In this document: positions 1,928-55,408 of the stretch, one piece after another
How the letters are laid out: each line of letters starts with the position of its first letter
How positions within the stretch are numbered: position 1 is the stretch's first letter
Source of the DNA: Clostridia bacterium
GTDB lineage: Bacteria; Bacillota; Clostridia; Monoglobales; Firm-18
DNA length: 64,000 nt
Assembly (NCBI GenBank): GCA_017397315.1
Contig: JAFQJA010000019.1
Location: 33,690-97,689 of the forward strand
Reading direction: 5' to 3'
The notes under the pieces: model-generated
Seen by the model: the letters and a program-made list of their open reading frames with translations, nothing else
Database searches by the model: none
Told to the model about the DNA's origin: nothing
Program-made: the position numbers and the translations under genes

Positions 1928-4900
1928 TTGCAACATTTATCAGAACTTTTTCCTGAAATCTGGGGAAATGTGAAATTTGACGGTAAGGTAACCGAGACAA
2001 AACTATATAAAGATTCGCGTGAAATTTATGTTAATGCTGAATTAGACCGATTTGTCAATAATGATACACTAACAGAAATCTGCGATAAAATTAAAGAGAA
2101 ATATAATCTTAATGCAGCAGAAATCGCACCTGTTTTTAACAAAGAATGTTACAGCAAAGACTTAATGCCGGAAATAATAAAATACATAAAAGATGCTGAT
2201 GTGGCGATGTTTTTACAAAACGGACAGTTCAGTTTTGACGGAGACAACATCAACATAAAATTTAACTGCTCATTAATAGAAAAGGACTTTAAAGGGGCAC
2301 TTACAAATAAAATAAAAGACCTTTTCGGCGTCGATGTTACCGTTATATCATCAGGAATTTCAGAAGACAGTGCAAGAGAGGAACTTGAAAATTTCCAGCG
2401 TGAGGTGGAACAGAGTAAAGCTAAAATTGTAAAACAAAGAATTAAGGAAAACAGTACAATTATTTACGGCAGAAAAATTAAGGACACAGATATTATGCCT
2501 ATCGCGGACATAAACGAACTTTCAGGCAATGTGGTAATTGAAGGTGAGATTTTTACCAAAGAGATTGATGTTCGTGTTACGAGGGATAAAAAATACATTA
2601 TAATTTTTTCCGTAACAGACTACACAAATTCCATTAGTTGTAAAATATTTGTTGACCAGCAACAAGTGTATGAAAGCGTAAGCGAAAGACTTAAAAAAGG
2701 CGCATATATCCGTATTAAAGGTAATGTGGGTTACGATAAATATTCAAGAGAAATCGTGCTTTCTGTATATGACATTAACGAAGCGGTAAAAACTGAAAGA
2801 ACAGATGACGCAGAAGAAAAGAGAGTTGAACTTCATTTGCATACGCAGATGAGCAGTATGGATTCAACAGTAAATATAGACCAACTTATTAAAAAGTGCC
2901 AGAAGTTCGGACACAAAGCAATTGCTGTTACAGACCACGGCGTTGTTCAGGCATTCCCCTTTATGATGAATGCTGCACAAAAGACGGATATTAAAGTTTT
3001 ATACGGTTGCGAAATTTATCTTGTAAATATAGGTAGACCCATCGTTTTTTGTGCAGACGGACAAAGCCTTACAAAAAGCGTTGTAGTGTTTGACACAGAA
3101 ACCACAGGTCTTAACAGAGAAAATGAAGAGATAATAGAAATAGGTGCAGTAAAAATACAGGACGGGGAGATTGTTGACAGATTTACGACATTCATTAACC
3201 CTAAAAAGCCAATACCTCAAAAAATTGTGGAACTTACAAATATAACAGACGAGATGGTAAAAGATGCTCCTTTTATCGAAACTGTTATGCCGCAGTTTCT
3301 TGATTTTTGCGGGGACAGTGTTCTGGTTGCCCACAATGCTTCTTTTGATATTGGCTTTGTTAAAGAAACTGCAAAAAGGCTTGGCATAGAAGATTTTGCA
3401 CCTACATATATAGATACTGTAGAGTTGGCACGCGGATTTTTACCCGATTTGCCCAAACACAAACTTGACTTTGTTGCAAAGGCTCTTAATATTTCTTTGG
3501 AGGGACATCACAGAGCAGTTAACGATGCAGAAACTACAGCACAGATTTATCTGGAATTTGCAAGCCGTTTGCAGAATATGGAAATTACTACTACAGATGG
3601 GGTAAATATAGCATTTGACCAAGAAACAGACCCCAAAAAGAAAGGCTATCACCACGCAGTAATTTTTGCGAAAAATTATACAGGACTTAAAAATCTTTAT
3701 AAGATAATTTCTGTATCGCACCTCGAGAATTTTTACAAAAGACCAAGAGTTACAAAGGCTCTTTACTTAAAATACTGTGATGGTCTTATGATTGGCTCTG
3801 CATGTGAACAAGGTGAATTATACAGAAGTATTCAGCAGGGCAAGTCAAACAAAGAAGTTGCATCAATTGCCAGATTTTATGATTATCTGGAAATTCAGCC
3901 CCTTGGCAACAATGAATTTATGTTGAGGAAAAACATTGTTGAGAGCAAAGAACAATTAATTGAAATAAACAAAAGAATTATTAACCTTGGTGAGTTTTTC
4001 GGCAAACCTGTAGTCGCAACCTGTGATGTTCACTTCTTAGAACCGAGAGATTCTATATACAGGGCTATCTTGCAAAAAGGTCAGGGGTATGAAGATGCTG
4101 ACAATCAGGCACCTTTATATTACAGAACAACAGAAGAAATGTTATGTGAGTTTTCATATCTGCCACCCGAAAAGGCTTACGAAATTGTTGTTACAAATAC
4201 CAACAAAATTGCAGATATGTGCGAAAAAATACAACCCGTTCCTGATGGTACATTTCCACCCGTATGGCCTAATGCACCTGACGAAATAAAGGAAATGAGC
4301 GAAGCAAAGGCGAAAAGAATATACGGTGAGAATTTGCCTGATATAGTTCGTGCAAGAATGGATAAAGAACTTCACTCAATTATTACCTACGGTTTTTCAG
4401 TTATGTATTTAATAGCCCAGAGACTTGTTAAAAAGAGTAACGAAGATGGATATTTGGTAGGCTCAAGAGGTTCTGTAGGTTCTTCATTTGTTGCATTTTT
4501 AAGTGATATTACAGAGGTTAATGCACTGCCACCCCACTATGTGTGCAAAAAGTGTCAGTACAGTGAATTTGTAACTGACGGCTCTTACGGTTGCGGTGTT
4601 GATATGCCTGATAAGGTGTGTCCGAAATGTGGAGAAATGCTTTTTAAAGACGGTCATGACATTCCTTTTGAAACATTCCTCGGATTTGCAGGGGACAAAG
4701 AACCTGATATTGACCTTAATTTTTCAGGGGACTATCAGCCAAAAGCTCACAAATATACCGAGGTGTTGTTTGGAGAGGGCTATGTTTTCAGAGCAGGTAC
4801 GATAGCTACTTTGGCAGATAAAACTGCATTCGGGTTTGTTAAAAAGTACCTTGATGAAAAAGGAATAGTTGCGTCTAATGCAGAAATTGAAAGATTAATT

Positions 4901-9395: not shown

Positions 9396-10679
9396 TCAGT
9401 TATCCCAAAAATCAATTTTCCCCCCAAGGGAAATATAGTCATTCCAGAACTGAGGATATGATTTATCGGTGCATTTATAATCATCAACAGTTACCAATTC
9501 TTCGCAAACTGAAGATGCGATTGCAACGGCCATTGCTATTCTGTGGTCATTACAACTGTTTGTTGCTCCGCCCGATAATTTTTCAGTACCCTCTATTATA
9601 AGAGAATCGCCTTTTTCAATTATTGTTCCGCCAAGGGAATTGAGTTGCTGGGCAATGGTGGACAGTCTGTCGCTTTCTTTTAGTCTTAACCTTGAAGCAC
9701 CCTTTATTACAGTCTCACCTGTTGCATTAATGGCTAGTACTGCTATTGCAGGTACCAGATCTGGTATCTGGGAAACATCTATAGTGCAACCGTGAAGATT
9801 TGACGGAAGTGCAGAAATGCCTTTTTCATTGTCAATTATAACTTTCCCGCCCATCTTTTTAATAATTTCTATTATTTTTTTGTCGCCCTGTTTCGTATTG
9901 GTGTTTAAGCCTTTGCATACCACAAAGTTGCCGATAGCACCGGCAGCCAGAAAAAATGCCGCTTGTGAATAGTCTGCCTCAATTGTGTAATTGCAAGGTT
10001 TATACTGTTGTCCGCCTTTTATTTTGAATTTCTTATATCTGTAATTAGTAATTGTTATGCCGTACTGTTGCATAACATCAATTGTTAAATCAACATACGC
10101 CTTTGACTCAAGAGGCGTAGTTACAATAATTTCGCTGTCCTGTGGGTATAAAGGCAGGGTGAACAAAAGTCCGCTTATAAACTGACTGCTTACATTGCCC
10201 TCCACTCTTATTTTGCCTTGAATGTCTCCGCTTTTAACTGTAAGAGGCAAGTAGTCAAGACTGCATTTATTGTACTCTATATCAAATTTGTCAAACAGAT
10301 TAAGATATATGTCAAGAGGTCTTTTGGGAAGACGCCCTTGCCCGTCAAAAGTAACCTTTTTAGTTGCAAGCAGAGCCAAAGGTATTAAAAATCTTAAAGT
10401 GGAGCCACTCTCTCTGCAGTTTAGTTTAACAGGTGCAGAAACATTTAGAGTGTTAGTTCCGTCTATTAAAAGCTTGTCGTCATAGCGTGTTATCTTTGCA
10501 CCCAATGCTGACATACATTCAATCGTTGCGTTTATATCTTCCGAGTCGCCAACATTTTTCAGTTCTGAAATACCCCGTGCGAGGGAAGCACAGACGATAG
10601 CTCTGTGGCTTATAGATTTGGACGGCGGTATAACAACACTGCCGTTTAATTCTTTTGGAGTTATTGTAATGCTGTTCAT
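9396..10679 (-). CDS. aroA: 3-phosphoshikimate 1-carboxyvinyltransferase (EPSP synthase)
   Basis: PPSKSISHR, CRESGSTLR, SSQFISGLL, RLKESDR and DHRIAM. Start moved to the ATG at 10679 (SD AGGGGTG). Confidence 0.95.
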   Translation of the reverse strand: MNSITITPKELNGSVVIPPSKSISHRAIVCASLARGISELKNVGDSEDINATIECMSALGAKITRYDDKLLIDGTNTLNVSAPVKLNCRESGSTLRFLIPLALLATKKVTFDGQGRLPKRPLDIYLNLFDKFDIEYNKCSLDYLPLTVKSGDIQGKIRVEGNVSSQFISGLLFTLPLYPQDSEIIVTTPLESKAYVDLTIDVMQQYGITITNYRYKKFKIKGGQQYKPCNYTIEADYSQAAFFLAAGAIGNFVVCKGLNTNTKQGDKKIIEIIKKMGGKVIIDNEKGISALPSNLHGCTIDVSQIPDLVPAIAVLAINATGETVIKGASRLRLKESDRLSTIAQQLNSLGGTIIEKGDSLIIEGTEKLSGGATNSCNDHRIAMAVAIASSVCEELVTVDDYKCTDKSYPQFWNDYISLGGKIDFWDN

Positions 10680-18365: not shown

Positions 18366-19298
18366 ATGGACAGTTACAACCAGATTAAAGTTACCATTCC
18401 TGTTTGCGATTTGCAACTTGCGTCAGATGTTATGACTATGATGAATTTTACCGGCGGAATAATGATTGAAGATTATTCTGATATTGATGCATGCCCCTGG
18501 GATTATGTGGATACGGAAATTTTGGGAAAGGACAGAACAACTGCCTCGGTCAGTGGTTTTGTACCAAGCGGTGAAGAAATTTTACCTGTGATTGAACAGT
18601 TAAAATTGTTGTTGCCTGCAAACGCAAAAATTGATGTTATAACAGTTGAACAAAGCGACTGGGCAAACAACTGGAAAAAGTATTACAAGCCCGTGAGAGT
18701 GGGGAAAAACATTGTAATTAAACCTTCATGGGAGCAATACGACAAAAAGGAAACAGATGTTATTGTGGAACTCGACCCGGGAATGGCATTTGGTACAGGC
18801 ACTCACGAAACAACAAGAATGTGTATGGAACTGTTAGAAAGGGTTGTAAAGCCTGACACTTCCGTATTAGATGTTGGTTGCGGAAGTGGTATTTTGTCTA
18901 TAACTTCACTTCTGATAGGTGCTAAAAATGCCGTGGGGGTTGACATTGACCCCGTGGCAGTTTGCGTCGCTGTAGAAAACGGTGAAAGAAATAATTTTAC
19001 AAAACCCAGATATGTTATTAAAAAAGGAAACCTTGTTGATGAAATAGATGGGAAATTTGATATAGCAGTTGCAAACATTGTTGCAGATGCAATAATTATG
19101 CTTTGCCCTGATGTTTTTCGTTTTATTAAAGACGACGGATACTTTATATGTTCGGGAATTATTGAGGACAGAATAGAAGATGTCAAAGAAAAATTAATCA
19201 GCGAGGGTTACAAAATAGAAGAAGTATTGCGACAGGGAGAATGGTGTGCAATGCTTTGCGAAAGGGATGTAAAAAAAGTCCAGACAGCAAAAAGGTAA
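18366..19298 (+). CDS. prmA: Ribosomal protein L11 methyltransferase; the last 11 residues and the stop come from the adjacent repeat element
   Basis: DPGMAFGTGTHETT, VLDVGCGSGILS and ANI; follows dnaJ. Confidence 0.95.
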   Translation: MDSYNQIKVTIPVCDLQLASDVMTMMNFTGGIMIEDYSDIDACPWDYVDTEILGKDRTTASVSGFVPSGEEILPVIEQLKLLLPANAKIDVITVEQSDWANNWKKYYKPVRVGKNIVIKPSWEQYDKKETDVIVELDPGMAFGTGTHETTRMCMELLERVVKPDTSVLDVGCGSGILSITSLLIGAKNAVGVDIDPVAVCVAVENGERNNFTKPRYVIKKGNLVDEIDGKFDIAVANIVADAIIMLCPDVFRFIKDDGYFICSGIIEDRIEDVKEKLISEGYKIEEVLRQGEWCAMLCERDVKKVQTAKR

Positions 19299-19497
19299 GT
19301 ATAAATATAATCTCTATTATAAAAAGTTGGAAATTTTATAATTTTTGTTGTATATGTTGAAAAAGGTCGTACGACCTTTTTCTTTTGTTTTATACCTTTT
19401 TGCTATAAGCAAACTTCACCTCTCGACGAACCTTTGTACGCCTTCGTGTAACCCCTGCGGGTTCAGTTTGCTCATTCTGCCTTTTTTTCTGTCCCTT
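19262..19497. mobile_element. Structured MITE-like repeat, copy 1
   Basis: Ends AAGGGATGTAAAAAAAG...CTTTTTTTCTGTCCCTT. Bases 19389-19449 match 34151-34211 at 50/61 ungapped positions. Nested inverted repeats. Confidence 0.7.
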
Positions 19498-19503
19498 AAA
19501 TAA

Positions 19504-19539
19504 AAAAAGACTCATATCCTTTTGGATATGAGCCTTTTT
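19504..19539. terminator. Bidirectional intrinsic terminator
   Basis: AAAAAGACTCATATCC-TTTT-GGATATGAGCCTTTTT between convergent transcription units. Confidence 0.85.
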
Positions 19540-31649: not shown

Positions 31650-32181
31650 AAATGTAGAGAGAATACTGTTTACTGAAGAACAACTTAAATACCGTGTCAG
31701 AGAAATGGCAGAAGAAATCAACAATTACTATAACGGAGAAGCCGTTACAGTTATATCGGTTTTAAAAGGAAGTGTTGTTTTTGCGGTTGATTTGATTAAA
31801 CAACTGAATATGCCGGTATCACTTGATTTTATTTGTGCTTCAAGTTACGGTTCAGGCACAATTTCTTCAGGAAAACTTATTATAAAAAAAGATGTTGAAT
31901 TAGAAATAGAAGGGCAAAATATACTATTGTTAGAGGATATTATTGACACAGGGGAAACTTTGCACGAAATAATAAAAATGCTTAAAGGAAGAGGAACGAA
32001 AAGCATTGCAACTGCAATGATGTTTAATAAACCTGCACGACGCAAAAAAGCAGTTCAGGCTGATTTTATAGGGTTTGATATTCCTGACGAATTTGTGGTA
32101 GGTTATGGTCTTGACTATGATGAGCAGTATCGCAATCTTCCTTATCTTGGAGTATTAAAAAGAAGCGTATATGAGGAATAA
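31642..32181 (+). CDS. hpt: Hypoxanthine phosphoribosyltransferase
   Basis: [23 protein letters not shown] and YRNLPY. Confidence 0.96.
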
Positions 32182-32203
32182 GAGAGGACGAGGACAGGTA
32201 AAA

Positions 32204-34024
32204 ATGAACAAACATATTAAAAACATAGGCTTTTATGTATTGTTGTTTGCGGTAATTCTGGTTATATTCAGTTTGTATGCAAGTACACCGCCCGCTGAAC
32301 CAAAAACCTACACAGATTTATATACCGCAATTAACAATGAAAGTGTTAAAAAATTAACTGTTATTGAGCAGACTGCAGTTGCACTGATGGAAGACGGCAC
32401 AAAGATGGAAGTTACCATACCGCCTCTTGAACAGTTTTACGCAGATTTGGGTACAACTATAAGGTCGCAAATGGATTCGGGTAAGCTGGTGTTTAATCCT
32501 GAACCTCCTGAAACTACGCCCTGGTGGCTTTCTATGCTTCCCACATTAGTAATGATAATAATATTTATTCTTTTTTGGGTTTTCTTTATCAATCAGGCTC
32601 AAGGCGGTGGGGGCAAAGCCATGCAGTTTGGTAAATCAAAAGCCAAAATGCTTAACGATGCAAATAAAAAATATAAGTTTGAAGATGTAGCAGGGGCAGA
32701 CGAAGAAAAGGCCGAACTTGAAGAGGTTGTTGAATTCTTAAAAGCACCCGGCAAGTTTATGGGTTTAGGAGCAAGAATACCAAGAGGTGTACTTTTGGTG
32801 GGCCCTCCCGGAACAGGTAAGACATTACTTGCCAAAGCTGTAGCAGGCGAAGCGGGTGTTCCGTTTTTCAGTATAAGCGGTTCTGATTTTGTTGAAATGT
32901 TTGTAGGTGTGGGTGCTTCGCGTGTGAGAGATTTGTTTGAACAGGCAAAGAAAAACTCACCTGCAATTGTATTTATTGATGAAATTGACGCTGTAGGCCG
33001 TCATAGAGGTGCAGGTTTAGGTGGCGGTCATGACGAAAGAGAACAGACGCTAAATCAGTTGCTTGTTGAAATGGACGGTTTTGGTGATAACCAGGGCGTG
33101 ATTGTTATTGCCGCAACAAACAGACCTGATATATTGGATCCTGCTTTATTAAGACCTGGCAGATTTGACAGGCAGGTTGTTGTCGGAACTCCTGACTTAA
33201 AGGGCAGAGAAGCGATTTTGGGTGTTCACACAAGAAATAAACCATTAGAAGACGATGTTAATTTATCAACACTTGCAAAAACGACTGCAGGTTTTTCAGG
33301 TGCCGACCTTGAAAACTTAACTAACGAAGCAGCACTTTTGGCGGCAAGAAGAGATAAAATAAAAATTGGTATGCCTGAATTTGAAGATGCAATAATAAAA
33401 ATTATTGCAGGACCTGAGAAAAAAGCAAGAGTAATTACCAAAAAGGAAAAGGAATTAACCGCATATCACGAAGCAGGTCATGCTATTGTTACAAGACTTA
33501 TTCCTACTCAGGACCCTGTTCATCAAGTATCTATTATACCAAGAGGCAGAGCAGGAGGCTACACTTTGTCATTGCCGTCTCAGGATAAGTTTTATGCTTC
33601 AAAAACTGAAATGCAAGACGAAATTGTTGTACTGCTTGGCGGAAGAGTTGCTGAAAAACTTGTTCTTAATGATATTTCTACAGGTGCGTCTAACGATTTG
33701 GAAAGAGCAACCGCTATTGCAAGAAATATGGTTGTTAAGTACGGTATGAGTGATACTTTAGGTTCTATGACTTTCGGCTCTGACAATTCAGAGGTGTTCA
33801 TTGGAAGAGATTATGGAAGAACCAGAGATTACAGCGAAAATGTTGCATCTCAAATTGATGCGGAGATTAAAGGAATTATCGATACCGCATATCAAAGATG
33901 TGAGAAGTTGATAAAAGACAATATGGACGCATTAAACAGAGTTGCAAAAGAACTATTAGAAAAAGAAACTATTAATGCTGAAGAATTTGAAGAAATATTT
34001 ACAAGAGAAGAAGTAGATGAATAA
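32204..34024 (+). CDS. ftsH: ATP-dependent zinc metalloprotease FtsH
   Basis: Two TM helices, [11 protein letters not shown] and HEAGH. Start taken as the ATG at 32204. Confidence 0.97.
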
Positions 34025-34279
34025 AAGGGATGTAAAAATCGGCCAGACCGTAAAAAAGCATGGATTTATTAAATCCAAATACAAGGTAAGTATAAACATA
34101 AAATAATATAAAAGGAAGGAAAATATCTAATAGGATATTTTCCTTCTTTTTTTATGCTTTTTTACTATGAAAAAACTTCGCCACTCGACGTACTTTTGTA
34201 CGCCTTCGGGTTTCCAAAAGCAAGGTAATCCTTGCTTTTGCTCAGTTTTTTCATTCTGACACAATTTTTCCTATCCCTT
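34025..34279. mobile_element. Structured MITE-like repeat, copy 2
   Basis: Starts directly after the ftsH TAA. Ends AAGGGAT...ATCCCTT. Homologous to 19262-19497. Confidence 0.7.
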
Positions 34280-34282
34280 GAC

Positions 34283-34318
34283 AAAAAAGACTGAAAAAAC
34301 ATAGGTTTTTTCAGTCTT
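34283..34318. terminator. Intrinsic terminator of the ABC operon (probably bidirectional)
   Basis: AAGACTGAAAAAAC-ATAG-GTTTTTTCAGTCTT with an A-tract. Confidence 0.8.
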
Positions 34319-54514: not shown

Positions 54515-55408
54515 ATGGATTCAGTAGTATTACAGTTTGAAAAATATTTAAAAAATGAGAAAAAAGCATCTGTTAATACTCTTCAGTCTTATATGAGGGA
54601 TATTAACCAGTACATAGATTATCTTGAGGATGGTAAATTGGGGGACTATATAAGTGCAACGCCTACTGTTTTCCTTAACTATATGTTAATGTTAAAACAG
54701 TGCGGAAAAGCAACTTCTACTATTTCCCGAAATCTTGCTTCTGTCAGGGCTTTTTATAATTTTTTGCTTAAAAATAAACTTTGCGAAAACAACCCTACAG
54801 ATAAAGTACATACAATGAAGCCTGAACGAAAAATGCCACAGATACTTACTGCGACTGAAGTGGATTTACTATTAAGTTTACCTAAGTGTGATAATTTAAA
54901 GAGCATAAGAGACAAGGCAATGCTTGAACTTTTGTATGCTACCGGTATAAGGGTATCTGAACTTGTTTCTCTGGATATAACAGATGTCAATTTAGATGTT
55001 GGCTTTATTGTTTGTAAAAGTGCTGTTAAAGAAAGGGTTGTACCAATCTACCCTGCGGCAGTTTCTTGTTTAAACAACTATGTTACTAATGCAAGAAACT
55101 TTTTAATTGACGGAATGGATAATGATGCTCTTTTTGTTAATACAAACGGAAAGCGGTTGACAAGACAGGGCTTTTGGAAAATAATCAAGCAATATCAGGC
55201 TGAAGCACACATTGACAAGGAAATAACACCACATACTTTAAGACATTCTTTTGCAACACATCTCCTTGAAAACGGTGCAGATTTAAAATCCCTTCAACTT
55301 ATGATGGGGCACTCTGATATTTCGTCAACTCACATTTATACAAATCTTATAAATAATAAAATTAACGATGTTTACAGACACGCACACCCCAGAGCAAGAA
55401 AAATGTAA
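54515..55408 (+). CDS. xerD: Site-specific tyrosine recombinase XerD (RipX)
   Basis: LYATGIRVSEL, TRQGFWK, TPHTLRHSFATHLLENGADL and GHSDISST. Confidence 0.93.
   Translation: MDSVVLQFEKYLKNEKKASVNTLQSYMRDINQYIDYLEDGKLGDYISATPTVFLNYMLMLKQCGKATSTISRNLASVRAFYNFLLKNKLCENNPTDKVHTMKPERKMPQILTATEVDLLLSLPKCDNLKSIRDKAMLELLYATGIRVSELVSLDITDVNLDVGFIVCKSAVKERVVPIYPAAVSCLNNYVTNARNFLIDGMDNDALFVNTNGKRLTRQGFWKIIKQYQAEAHIDKEITPHTLRHSFATHLLENGADLKSLQLMMGHSDISSTHIYTNLINNKINDVYRHAHPRARKM

Follow-up and report, generated by a model that had tools for sequence, protein, structure and literature searches.

What is the non-coding element that lies, in two diverged copies, at the 3' ends of the prmA and ftsH genes of a Clostridia bacterium? 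The copies occur in a 64,000-nt stretch of contig JAFQJA010000019.1 (positions 33,690 to 97,689 of the forward strand, assembly GCA_017397315.1; hereafter, the window), where an earlier note had described them as a structured element bounded by inverted repeats, possibly mobile but non-autonomous, or else an unlisted RNA family. We find that both stretches are members of a large non-coding, non-autonomous, duplicating family in gut Clostridia. The reading we favour, which in our judgement is about evenly balanced, is that of a mobile unit whose functional form is an RNA read from the minus strand. What is new beyond the two copies first seen is the size of the family, its site preference and an attached terminator hairpin.

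Both copies (copy 1, 19262-19497; copy 2, 34025-34279) start with AAGGGATGTAAAAA..CCAGAC and end with CATTCTG..TTTTT..TCCCTT, as the earlier note had it, and on re-checking, their gap-free 61-nt core (19389-19449 versus 34151-34211) is again identical at 50 of 61 positions. Stem A is in place in copy 1 (GCAAAAAGGTA from 19287, TACCTTTTTGC from 19393) and in copy 2 (GTAAAAAAGCA from 34050, TGCTTTTTTAC from 34155), as is stem B (GCAAACT from 19409 with AGTTTGC from 19465; AAAAACT from 34171 with AGTTTTT from 34244). The differing side hairpins, here called H2, were located at 19451 and 34215 and are wholly unlike each other. Mean column identity in a MAFFT alignment of both copies with their flanks is 78%. 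Copy 1 starts within the final codons of the PrmA gene (open reading frame [ORF] 18366-19298), and copy 2 adjoins the FtsH gene (ORF 32171-34024).

Family size and spread

Searches with BLAST and with an nhmmer profile of four copies matched 13 places in the window's own genome (917 kb, 27 contigs). This genome is G000 in our numbering of the genomes compared, and G001 and G002 are sister genomes. The conserved core is present at seven of the 13 places, one of them cut by a contig end and another (C9) with a shortened left arm. The remaining six are core-less and consist of the left end, a hairpin and a T-run, with a recognizable right end in four. As two of these core-less forms are orthologous to full copies in G001, they are internal deletions rather than precursors.

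Beyond this genome, a covariance model of the core (R1) matched 26 of 61 genomes of the same order, the window's own included, with up to 44, 31, 28 and 20 matches per genome and none in many close relatives. A second model (R2), drawn on the opposite strand, matched 31 of 151 genomes from many families, in a sample spread evenly over the class; 25 candidates were scored per genome, so a count of 25 is a floor. Both models cover the core only (107-122 positions). Among the matches listed for an exact 26-nt core pattern are more than 120 stretches of named records, all of which are gut metagenome-assembled genomes (MAGs); the labels listed are Clostridia, Eubacteriales, Acutalibacteraceae, Oscillospiraceae, Ruminococcus and Candidatus Fimenecus. 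The earlier note had pointed to further copies as a check on its idea, and with 13 matches in the own genome and hundreds elsewhere by covariance model, the likeness of the two window copies is not due to chance.

Several traits of miniature inverted-repeat transposable elements were found: units are short and non-coding, occur in many copies (13 here, at least 37-44 elsewhere) and carry the end motif AGGGATRKRAAAA on both ends. In four DNA contig runs, summed depth over the core was 10-20x higher, as in a repeat, and there was no clean joint across the element. Many contigs of genome G136 start or stop within the element, which indicates that the repeat is a main cause of breaks in this assembly and that copy counts in MAGs are floors.

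Anatomy of the unit

Units are typically 225-265 nt long, and many also carry a hairpin of ~40 nt. Read along the plus strand, the left arm comes first, then stem A, whose two strands flank a variable region that contains a hairpin, then stem B around the core, and finally the right arm. The left arm has a consensus near AAAGGGGATGTAAAAAAAG-CGCAGAC, the right arm reads GTTCTGCAT-CTTTTTTT-CCT-ATCCCC, and the two pair as P1, an imperfect terminal helix of ~25 bp whose inner loop is asymmetric and conserved, GT being its left side and CCT its right side (GT versus AGG when the ends are compared). Inside P1 is a three-way junction with two branches, stem A, which encloses the variable region and its hairpin, and stem B. 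Stem B continues, by way of a tandem G·A/A·G motif and a single covarying R-Y pair, to a second three-way junction. From this junction extend the variable hairpin H2, of 4-13 bp, and the conserved arm H1, which is composed of a C-G pair, a tandem G·A/A·G, a bulged A and a 7-bp stem with a loop of 4-6 nt. The fold is that of the minus strand, and relative to the gene that has its stop codon at the left end it is antisense.

In the subfamily of the window's genome, the variable-region hairpin is followed by a T-run and looks like a terminator on the plus strand; in most other genomes this hairpin has no T-run. Most relatives instead have, after the right arm and 3-12 A-rich bases, a perfect hairpin with a T-run (hereafter, T-hairpin), for example GGGGCTGTAAAAAAAC-loop-GTTTTTTTACAGCCCC, which resembles a two-way terminator. 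Its arms are further copies of the end motif, such that the motif occurs 2-4 times per unit (left arm, right arm and, where present, both arms of the T-hairpin). In the T-hairpin, the 5' arm is nearly identical to the element's own left arm and, judged by eye, varies together with it between subfamilies. T-hairpins on their own are rare in G000, G005, G013, G017, G028 and G051, and nearly all of the 34 T-hairpins of G136 have one common loop and lie beside elements; we therefore count the T-hairpin as part of the unit and not as a pre-existing general terminator or target. Copy 1 has no T-hairpin, and a resident two-way terminator serves instead.

Covariation supports every part of the fold

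We assessed covariation in two sets of cores. The plus-drawn set comprises 40 distinct core sequences from more than 20 genomes, chosen without any pattern. Over its 20 pairs, 94.5% of cells are paired, compared to 84.9% when shuffled, and covariation is 0.288, compared to 0.130, with none of 500 shuffles scoring as high. Controls in which partners were slid by 1-3 columns gave covariation of at most 0.061, and 11 of the 20 pairs have changed on both sides. The minus-drawn core (21 pairs, 39 distinct copies) behaves similarly: 94.9% of cells are paired versus 86.1%, covariation is 0.304 versus 0.139, and 13 pairs have changed on both sides. By eye, the pair beside the GA motif of stem B switches between G-C and A-U in 22 of 22 alignment rows.

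P1 and the arms of stem A extend beyond the span of the models. For these helices, pairing of each copy's own arms was compared, over 67 copies, with pairing to the arms of all other copies. Own P1 arms pair at -22.6 kcal/mol versus -16.5 kcal/mol for cross-pairings, and the own partner falls in the best tenth for 34 of 67 copies. For stem A the corresponding values are -11.8 and -6.0 kcal/mol, with 41 of 67 copies in the best tenth. Many of the other arms come from the same subfamily, which makes this comparison conservative. Collectively, these data show that the elaborate fold is real and kept by selection, with every part of it (P1, stem A, stem B and core) covarying.

The fold belongs to the minus strand

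The earlier note had held that A-C mismatches become G-U pairs when the element is read on the minus strand, and that the stems are closed by tandem GA/GA motifs. A count over the helices of the 39 copies gives 60 G·U and 14 A·C cells on the minus strand, hence 60 A·C and 14 G·U on the plus strand. Two pairs at the foot of stem B are G·U on the minus strand in 9 and 21 of 39 copies, respectively. The second pair of H1 (39-78) reads A·C in 20, G-C in 12 and C-G in 8 of 40 sequences on the plus strand and is thus canonical in all 40 on the minus strand; this covarying pair supports the 7-bp H1 stem of the minus drawing, the outer H1 arm being alternatively drawable as a plus-strand Watson-Crick helix (CUCGA/UCGGG). 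Each of two 2x2 inner loops is GA/GA on the minus strand in 34 of 39 distinct copies (more than 20 genomes) and UC/CU on the plus strand.

Predicted energies show the same asymmetry. The core is more stable on the minus strand in 109 of 113 distinct copies (mean -39.1 versus -30.5), and its gain over shuffled sequences is -17.0 for minus and -12.3 for plus; as this corrected difference is smaller, about half of the strand difference of the core reflects base composition. For the whole element, energy is lower on the minus strand in 66 of 67 copies (-84.5 versus -73.9), and for P1 alone in 51 of 67. The minus-strand reading is confirmed.

In a kink-turn (k-turn), a 3-nt bulge with tandem G·A/A·G pairs next to it joins a canonical helix to a non-canonical one. 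We considered this reading of the GA motifs and rejected it, as there is no 3-nt bulge: one motif lies inside a continuous helix, flanked by the covarying R-Y pair, and next to the other just one A bulges out, on the strand opposite to that expected for a k-turn.

If it were the plus strand that mattered, the unit might act in the 3' untranslated region (UTR) of the left gene as a conditional, riboswitch-like terminator. A form with P1 and the T-hairpin would stop transcription; in the other state, the right arm would pair with the 5' arm of the T-hairpin, and polymerase would enter the convergent gene as antisense. The order of P1 left, P1 right, hairpin and T-run is the usual one for an off-switch on the plus strand, a strand certain to be transcribed, and the 5' arm of the T-hairpin copies the left arm and varies with it, a likeness needed neither for P1 nor for the T-hairpin itself. 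However, the plus strand has 60 A·C cells where the minus strand has G·U, has U·C/C·U in place of G·A, and folds more weakly in 66 of 67 copies. Furthermore, copies in the window's genome either have no T-hairpin (copy 1) or already end transcription at the inner hairpin, and the neighbouring genes are unrelated. We regard such a switch as quite improbable.

Insertion sites and neighbouring genes

Units sit in an A-rich tract between a stop codon (or the 3' end of a tRNA) and a terminator. In the window's genome, 11 of the 12 assessable copies follow a co-oriented ORF of at least 90 aa that ends between 43 nt inside and 6 nt before the left end; one assessable copy has no such ORF, and one more is cut by a contig end. 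In other genomes, 60 of 71 copies have a co-oriented frame ending -60 to +25 nt from the left end, mostly at -9 to +3. Among 63 distinct copies with enough flanking sequence, 47 lie between convergent genes, 10 adjoin a gene end on the left only, 3 on the right only, and 3 neither. Given 10 versus 3 in tandem gene pairs, the orientation rule is only a tendency there. Neighbouring genes have no common function (PrmA, FtsH, an M50 peptidase, a carbamoyltransferase, a PFOR-like protein, an antiporter, tRNA-Arg and others). With respect to riboswitches and attenuators, the units were found after stop codons, not in 5' leaders, and beside genes of unrelated function.

Insertion can alter the gene end itself. 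Copy 1 replaces the last three codons of PrmA with twelve of its own, such that the protein ends in ...CERDVKKVQTAKR here and in ...CKIK in G002, and at two further copies in the same genome the upstream ORF extends 19-43 nt into the left arm. The site of copy 1 is occupied by a different insert of 105-184 nt in G001 (L065/L069, C83 ~9881-10066) and G003 (L066/L068, C34 ~3704-3810). That insert, which contains GTGAAGTT(N) several times over, begins slightly further upstream in the PrmA frame, by a few bases. The 3' end of prmA is thus a hot spot at which two or more unrelated small elements insert.

At one locus of G017 (C11; L039, 1761-1837), a tRNA-Arg(CCG) gene is flanked by units on both sides, with their left arms towards the tRNA. 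In G009 and G019, this gene has no units beside it and is followed or preceded by ordinary terminators with short spacers. The T-hairpin beside one G017 unit has the same stem base, AAGGCG/CGCCTT, as the native terminator of the sister genomes; another locus has no such likeness.

These locations raise the possibility that the unit is a portable terminator or insulator cassette of value in cis only, the minus-strand fold serving as a fail-safe block or 3' end stabiliser. The 47 of 63 copies between convergent genes would fit this explanation, as would the terminator-like hairpins inside or beside the unit and the several loci at which a unit with its T-hairpin replaces the ordinary terminator of a sister genome. 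There is also a precedent, in that SPRITE of Streptococcus pneumoniae is a known terminator-like repeat (PMC3184786). However, one hairpin suffices for termination, which does not need a covarying core of 21 pairs or GA/GA motifs invariant across families, and the core-less forms that keep hairpin and ends are deletion products of full copies. On balance, we find a purely cis-acting cassette unlikely.

The element multiplies

The earlier note had suggested a non-autonomous mobile element, and this is supported by empty sites in sister species, copy numbers from 0 to at least 37 per genome, near-identical copies and tandem arrays. Copy 1 is cleanly absent in G002, where the sequence runs ...ATGCTTTGCAAAATAAAATAAAAAAAGG-terminator, compared to ...ATGCTTTGCG-[element]-AAATAAAAAAAG-terminator here; the unit, with both arms, is thus an insertion into the A-tract before the terminator. 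As that terminator (19504-19539) is present at the empty site in G002 too, it is not part of the element. Copy 2 is present in G001 and absent in G002, which has a 34-nt spacer with another terminator at this site, the terminator hairpin of copy 2 being gone along with the element.

In the other direction, five G001/G003 copies, which occupy four sites, are missing from the corresponding positions of the window's genome. One (L218) has inserted cleanly into an A-tract that lies 5' to a terminator hairpin. Two others (L200, L208) lie where the window's genome has a short spacer with a different terminator, and at the site of two orthologous copies (L210, L219) it has lost the unit plus half a terminator. 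One copy of G017 is likewise absent in both G009 and G019.

G136 has 37 left arms and 22 exact cores, with near-identical copies at unrelated loci, many at contig ends; this looks like a recent burst. G199 has arrays in which three units follow one another head to tail (period 242, 93% matches) and a single T-hairpin stands at the close, and at several other loci a full unit is followed by a partial second left arm. The element duplicates and moves, or at least multiplies.

Conservation after insertion

Five orthologous pairs were compared, and three of them are far better conserved than their flanks. Copy 2 and its G001 counterpart are identical at 330 of 334 positions, T-hairpin and immediate flanks included, while neighbouring 100-column coding windows are at 83-93%. 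In the pair formed by the C7 copy and G001, the windows covering arms, hairpin and core match at 99/100 and 97/99, compared to ~82% in the variable region and 76-88% in the flanks. A uniform recent transfer cannot explain this pattern, and purifying selection on the structured parts can. A pair between G001 and G002 gave 99, 99 and 96 per 100, with flanks at 84-92. In the C9 copy, a portion of the left arm between direct repeats is gone and H1 shows five or six changes, as though constraint on the copy had been lifted.

The earlier note had argued that a multi-branch fold is under selection on one strand, and that this is more than a decaying insertion sequence (IS) end would show. Both statements are supported: all helices covary, the strands are asymmetric, orthologues keep 96-99% identity versus 76-93% in their flanks, and the structured parts are kept while the variable region drifts. 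The competing explanation is that these are decaying ends of a lost IS under no structural selection, compensation being inherited subfamily variation. The ends are indeed inverted repeats, and some copies are decaying (the core-less forms and C9). Yet covariation is far above controls in every helix, structured parts stand at 97-99% versus ~82% for the variable region of the same copy, and the core is kept across many families of the class. This explanation is close to refuted, and we give it hardly any weight.

Searches for a mover, a parent element and known families

Matches to known families were sought in several collections. Across the 64-kb window, cmscan against Rfam 15 at gathering thresholds gave no matches, so that the family check named in the earlier note returned no hit. 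At E<=10, both copies gave sub-threshold matches only, the best one inside an element scoring 25 bits versus a gathering threshold of 45, and six loci from five other genomes gave none at E<=0.01. Collections of phages and plasmids contained no match to the element, and full-text literature searches turned up nothing on it, subscription journals and supplements lying outside their coverage. Short ORFs cross the core on both strands, and a small protein or type I toxin was therefore considered; since their frame relative to the core differs between copy 1 and copy 2, it was rejected.

The window itself holds housekeeping and sporulation genes and a XerD. When 53 of its ORFs were scanned (four more were scanned separately), 14 had no family at E<=1e-20 and one was XerD; none was named a transposase at that threshold, in keeping with the earlier note. 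The XerD-type tyrosine recombinase (54515-55408, plus strand; TIGR02225, E 1e-100) is the sole recombinase named among the window ORFs and is taken as a housekeeping Xer gene.

A transposase or nuclease encoded elsewhere, as the earlier note envisaged, did not turn up: neither a partner enzyme nor an autonomous copy was found in the own and related genomes examined. In the window's genome, no gene is enclosed by a pair of end motifs, and no parent IS, sharing these ends and encoding a transposase, was found there. None of the copies examined has a recombinase gene next to it. Three candidates for a parent element in other genomes were rejected. A pair of ends 2.8 kb apart (G018:C15) consists of a chance match in a 1050-aa ORF and an ordinary copy. 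Another pair, 1.35 kb apart (G136:C51), is a diverged ordinary copy followed by ORFs of 241 and 102 aa, which we take from their sequences to be membrane or transport genes. The third (L250, G136:C50, locus ~340-565) is an ordinary copy with a ~230-nt foreign insert exactly in the H1 loop.

The Y1 transposase domain (PF01797) occurs in 30 of the 61 genomes, with a distribution unlike that of the element. Y1_Tnp matches of one distinct class, in frames of ~250-274 aa (56-73 bits), were found in nine genomes (G007, G009, G010, G014, G017, G021, G028, G051 and G059), of which eight carry the element; such frames were not found in many other carriers. This gene could be RAYT-like.

The fold might also matter only as single-stranded DNA, the exposed minus strand being the substrate of a structure-specific recombinase or nuclease, with no RNA involved. 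Bottom strands of integron attC sites and the ends of IS200/IS605 elements are analogues, and G·T wobbles and tandem G·A pairs are stable in DNA too, which counts in favour of this idea. So do the strand-specific selection, the position right after stop codons, as for attC, the lack of a visible minus-strand promoter and the presence of the end motif 2-4 times per unit. However, selection for movement does not explain orthologues held at 96-99% while the variable region and flanks drift. The known single-strand recombination sites are, to our knowledge, simple hairpins and not two nested three-way junctions. Furthermore, the Y1 (HUH) family does not track the element, integron-like arrays were not seen, and the neighbours are unrelated housekeeping genes. 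We consider a role confined to single-stranded DNA doubtful, if conceivable.

Weighing a possible minus-strand RNA

We return to the reading of a mobile unit with a functional minus-strand RNA. The unit would spread as DNA, helped by an enzyme made elsewhere that recognizes the repeated end motif, the copies of this motif being putative binding sites for a protein supplied in trans. After insertion, the folded minus strand would be the functional molecule kept intact by selection. The complexity of the fold, the GA motifs and conservation after insertion speak for an RNA. In a more specific form of the proposal, the unit could be a mobile non-coding RNA gene whose product works in trans, e.g. 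as the scaffold or guide of a ribonucleoprotein or of a recombinase that moves the element, or else a sensor controlling antisense read-through between convergent genes; this form we put forward only tentatively.

Several observations weigh against the minus-strand RNA. With regard to its synthesis, there is no promoter-like site upstream of the minus-strand start in either window copy. The T-hairpin should halt transcripts from the convergent gene, a two-way terminator shielding the minus strand, and the plus strand is the one certainly transcribed, as the 3' UTR of the left gene. The left flank has at least four A in 18 of 57 copies, and a third to two thirds of copies are A-rich enough there for a U-run; being only moderately A-rich, this flank does not make P1 plus a U-run a general terminator.

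Other points concern selection and movement. Copies are kin, so that the strand counts do not represent 60 independent events. In two of the five orthologous comparisons, unlike the other three, the element is no better conserved than the sequence around it, and one of them, a G001-G003 pair with a duplicated left arm, is at 74-89%, below its flanks. Insertions lie within A-runs, which makes a target-site duplication unreadable, as 0-4 bp of A are indistinguishable. Finally, Y1 (PF01797) was not found in G000-G003, G005, G013 and G019, which have 4-20 copies of the element each, and the DEDD recombinase of IS110-type elements with bridge RNA (PF01548) was not found in G000-G003, G005, G013, G017, G019, G020 and G028. 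One caveat here is that MAGs often lose IS copies, and these absences are hence weak evidence. For some explanation other than those considered in this study we leave a small probability.

Coordinates of the two window copies

Table 1. Positions of the two copies, their parts and adjoining hairpins within the window. Left and right are drawn on the plus strand; paired strands are separated by a slash.
Feature	Position	Strand	Remarks
Copy 1, whole element	19262..19497	minus	236 nt; minus is the better-folding strand
Copy 1, P1 left arm	19262..19286	minus	Overlap with the last 12 PrmA codons and stop (19296-19298)
Copy 1, stem A left strand	19287..19297	minus	Partner 19393-19403
Copy 1, variable-region hairpin, then T-run	19359..19382	plus	Terminator-like on plus for prmA
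Copy 1, stem A right strand	19393..19403	minus	
Copy 1, conserved core	19407..19473	minus	Stem B 19409-19415 / 19465-19471; two tandem GA motifs on minus
Copy 1, core, H1 7-bp stem	19425-19431 / 19436-19442	minus	
Copy 1, core, H2	19451-19462	minus	
Copy 1, P1 right arm	19473..19497	minus	
Two-way terminator hairpin adjoining copy 1	19504..19539		Outside the element; resident terminator
Copy 2, whole element	34025..34279	minus	255 nt; starts at the first base after the FtsH stop (34022-34024)
Copy 2, variable-region hairpin and T-run	34110..34151	plus	Terminator-like on both strands
Copy 2, conserved core	34169..34252	minus	Stem B 34171-34177 / 34244-34250
Copy 2, core, H1	34187-34193 / 34198-34204	minus	
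Copy 2, core, H2	34215-34240	minus	Long H2
Copy 2, attached terminator hairpin	34287..34318		AAGACTGAAAAAAC-loop-GTTTTTTCAGTCTT; weak T-hairpin

Implications

A few model Firmicutes are known to carry structured interspersed repeats, and the movers and roles of these are mostly unsolved. The family described here is unusually favourable for study, as it occurs in about a fifth of the sampled genomes of the class, has a covarying fold and a strand preference, and appears to have been recently active in at least one genome. Its conservation after insertion is not expected of a purely selfish repeat. The element reshapes gene ends (as in the codons of PrmA), provides terminators or takes the place of existing ones at dozens of loci in each genome, and breaks MAG assemblies. 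Carriers include both uncultured and cultured-adjacent gut Clostridia, and a covariance model of the family would improve the annotation of thousands of gut genomes and help to find the enzyme or an RNA-binding partner.

Comparison with known systems

Integron attC sites have a structure conserved on the strand antisense to the upstream ORF; they start after its stop codon and have imperfect inverted ends with unpaired bases. The one-strand structure, the start right after the stop of an ORF and the imperfect inverted ends are all seen here. However, the ends of the element read AAGGGATG.../...TATCCCTT, without the R''/R' core sites (consensus RYYYAAC/GTTRRRY), there are no cassette arrays or intI integrase gene nearby, copies standing singly or in arrays of their own among housekeeping genes, and the fold is far more complex.

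REPs measure 20-40 bp and carry a GTAG or CGTC tag, and the associated RAYT proteins are Y1 transposases. REPs are palindromic extragenic repeats downstream of genes, often between convergent genes, with inverted pairs forming hairpins (cf. PMC3733652). The element resembles REPs and REPINs in its location between convergent genes and in the T-hairpin, an inverted pair of motifs, and differs from the REP/RAYT system in that the Y1 distribution does not track it.

In Correia elements (NEMIS), TA duplications are clear, and one transposase family has been put forward as related to them. Like the present family, they are short and non-coding, with terminal inverted repeats, many intergenic copies and side-effects as terminators or promoters. 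Here, in contrast, there is no readable duplication and no parent IS, the two ends are conservedly unlike each other, and the interior is conserved as well.

Closer parallels come from Firmicutes. SPRITE resembles a Rho-independent terminator, BOX is modular and occurs in tandem arrays, and RNA-level roles have been proposed for both (PMC3184786). Their sequences and folds are other than those of the element, in which a terminator hairpin is joined to a complex core and arrays repeat the whole 242-nt unit.

We file the family as a previously unlisted structured interspersed element. Among known kinds, the structured repeats interspersed in Firmicutes genomes come closest to it, bcr1 in particular. 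The same source describes the bcr repeats of the Bacillus cereus group as ~155-310 bp long; bcr1 is interspersed, non-coding, mobile-like and transcribed, its mover is unknown, and it forms a cruciform of two stem-loops with 5-bp direct repeats (PMC3184786). Its distribution is not conserved between close strains, and compensatory changes keep its single-strand fold (PMC3184786). The same traits were found here, as the element is an interspersed repeat of Firmicutes, variable between close genomes, with a fold kept by compensatory changes. The two have no sequence likeness, in that no Rfam family matched, and what sets the present family apart is a double three-way junction closed by P1 and bearing tandem GA motifs, a palindromic terminator attached to the unit and a range that spans the class, not a single species group.

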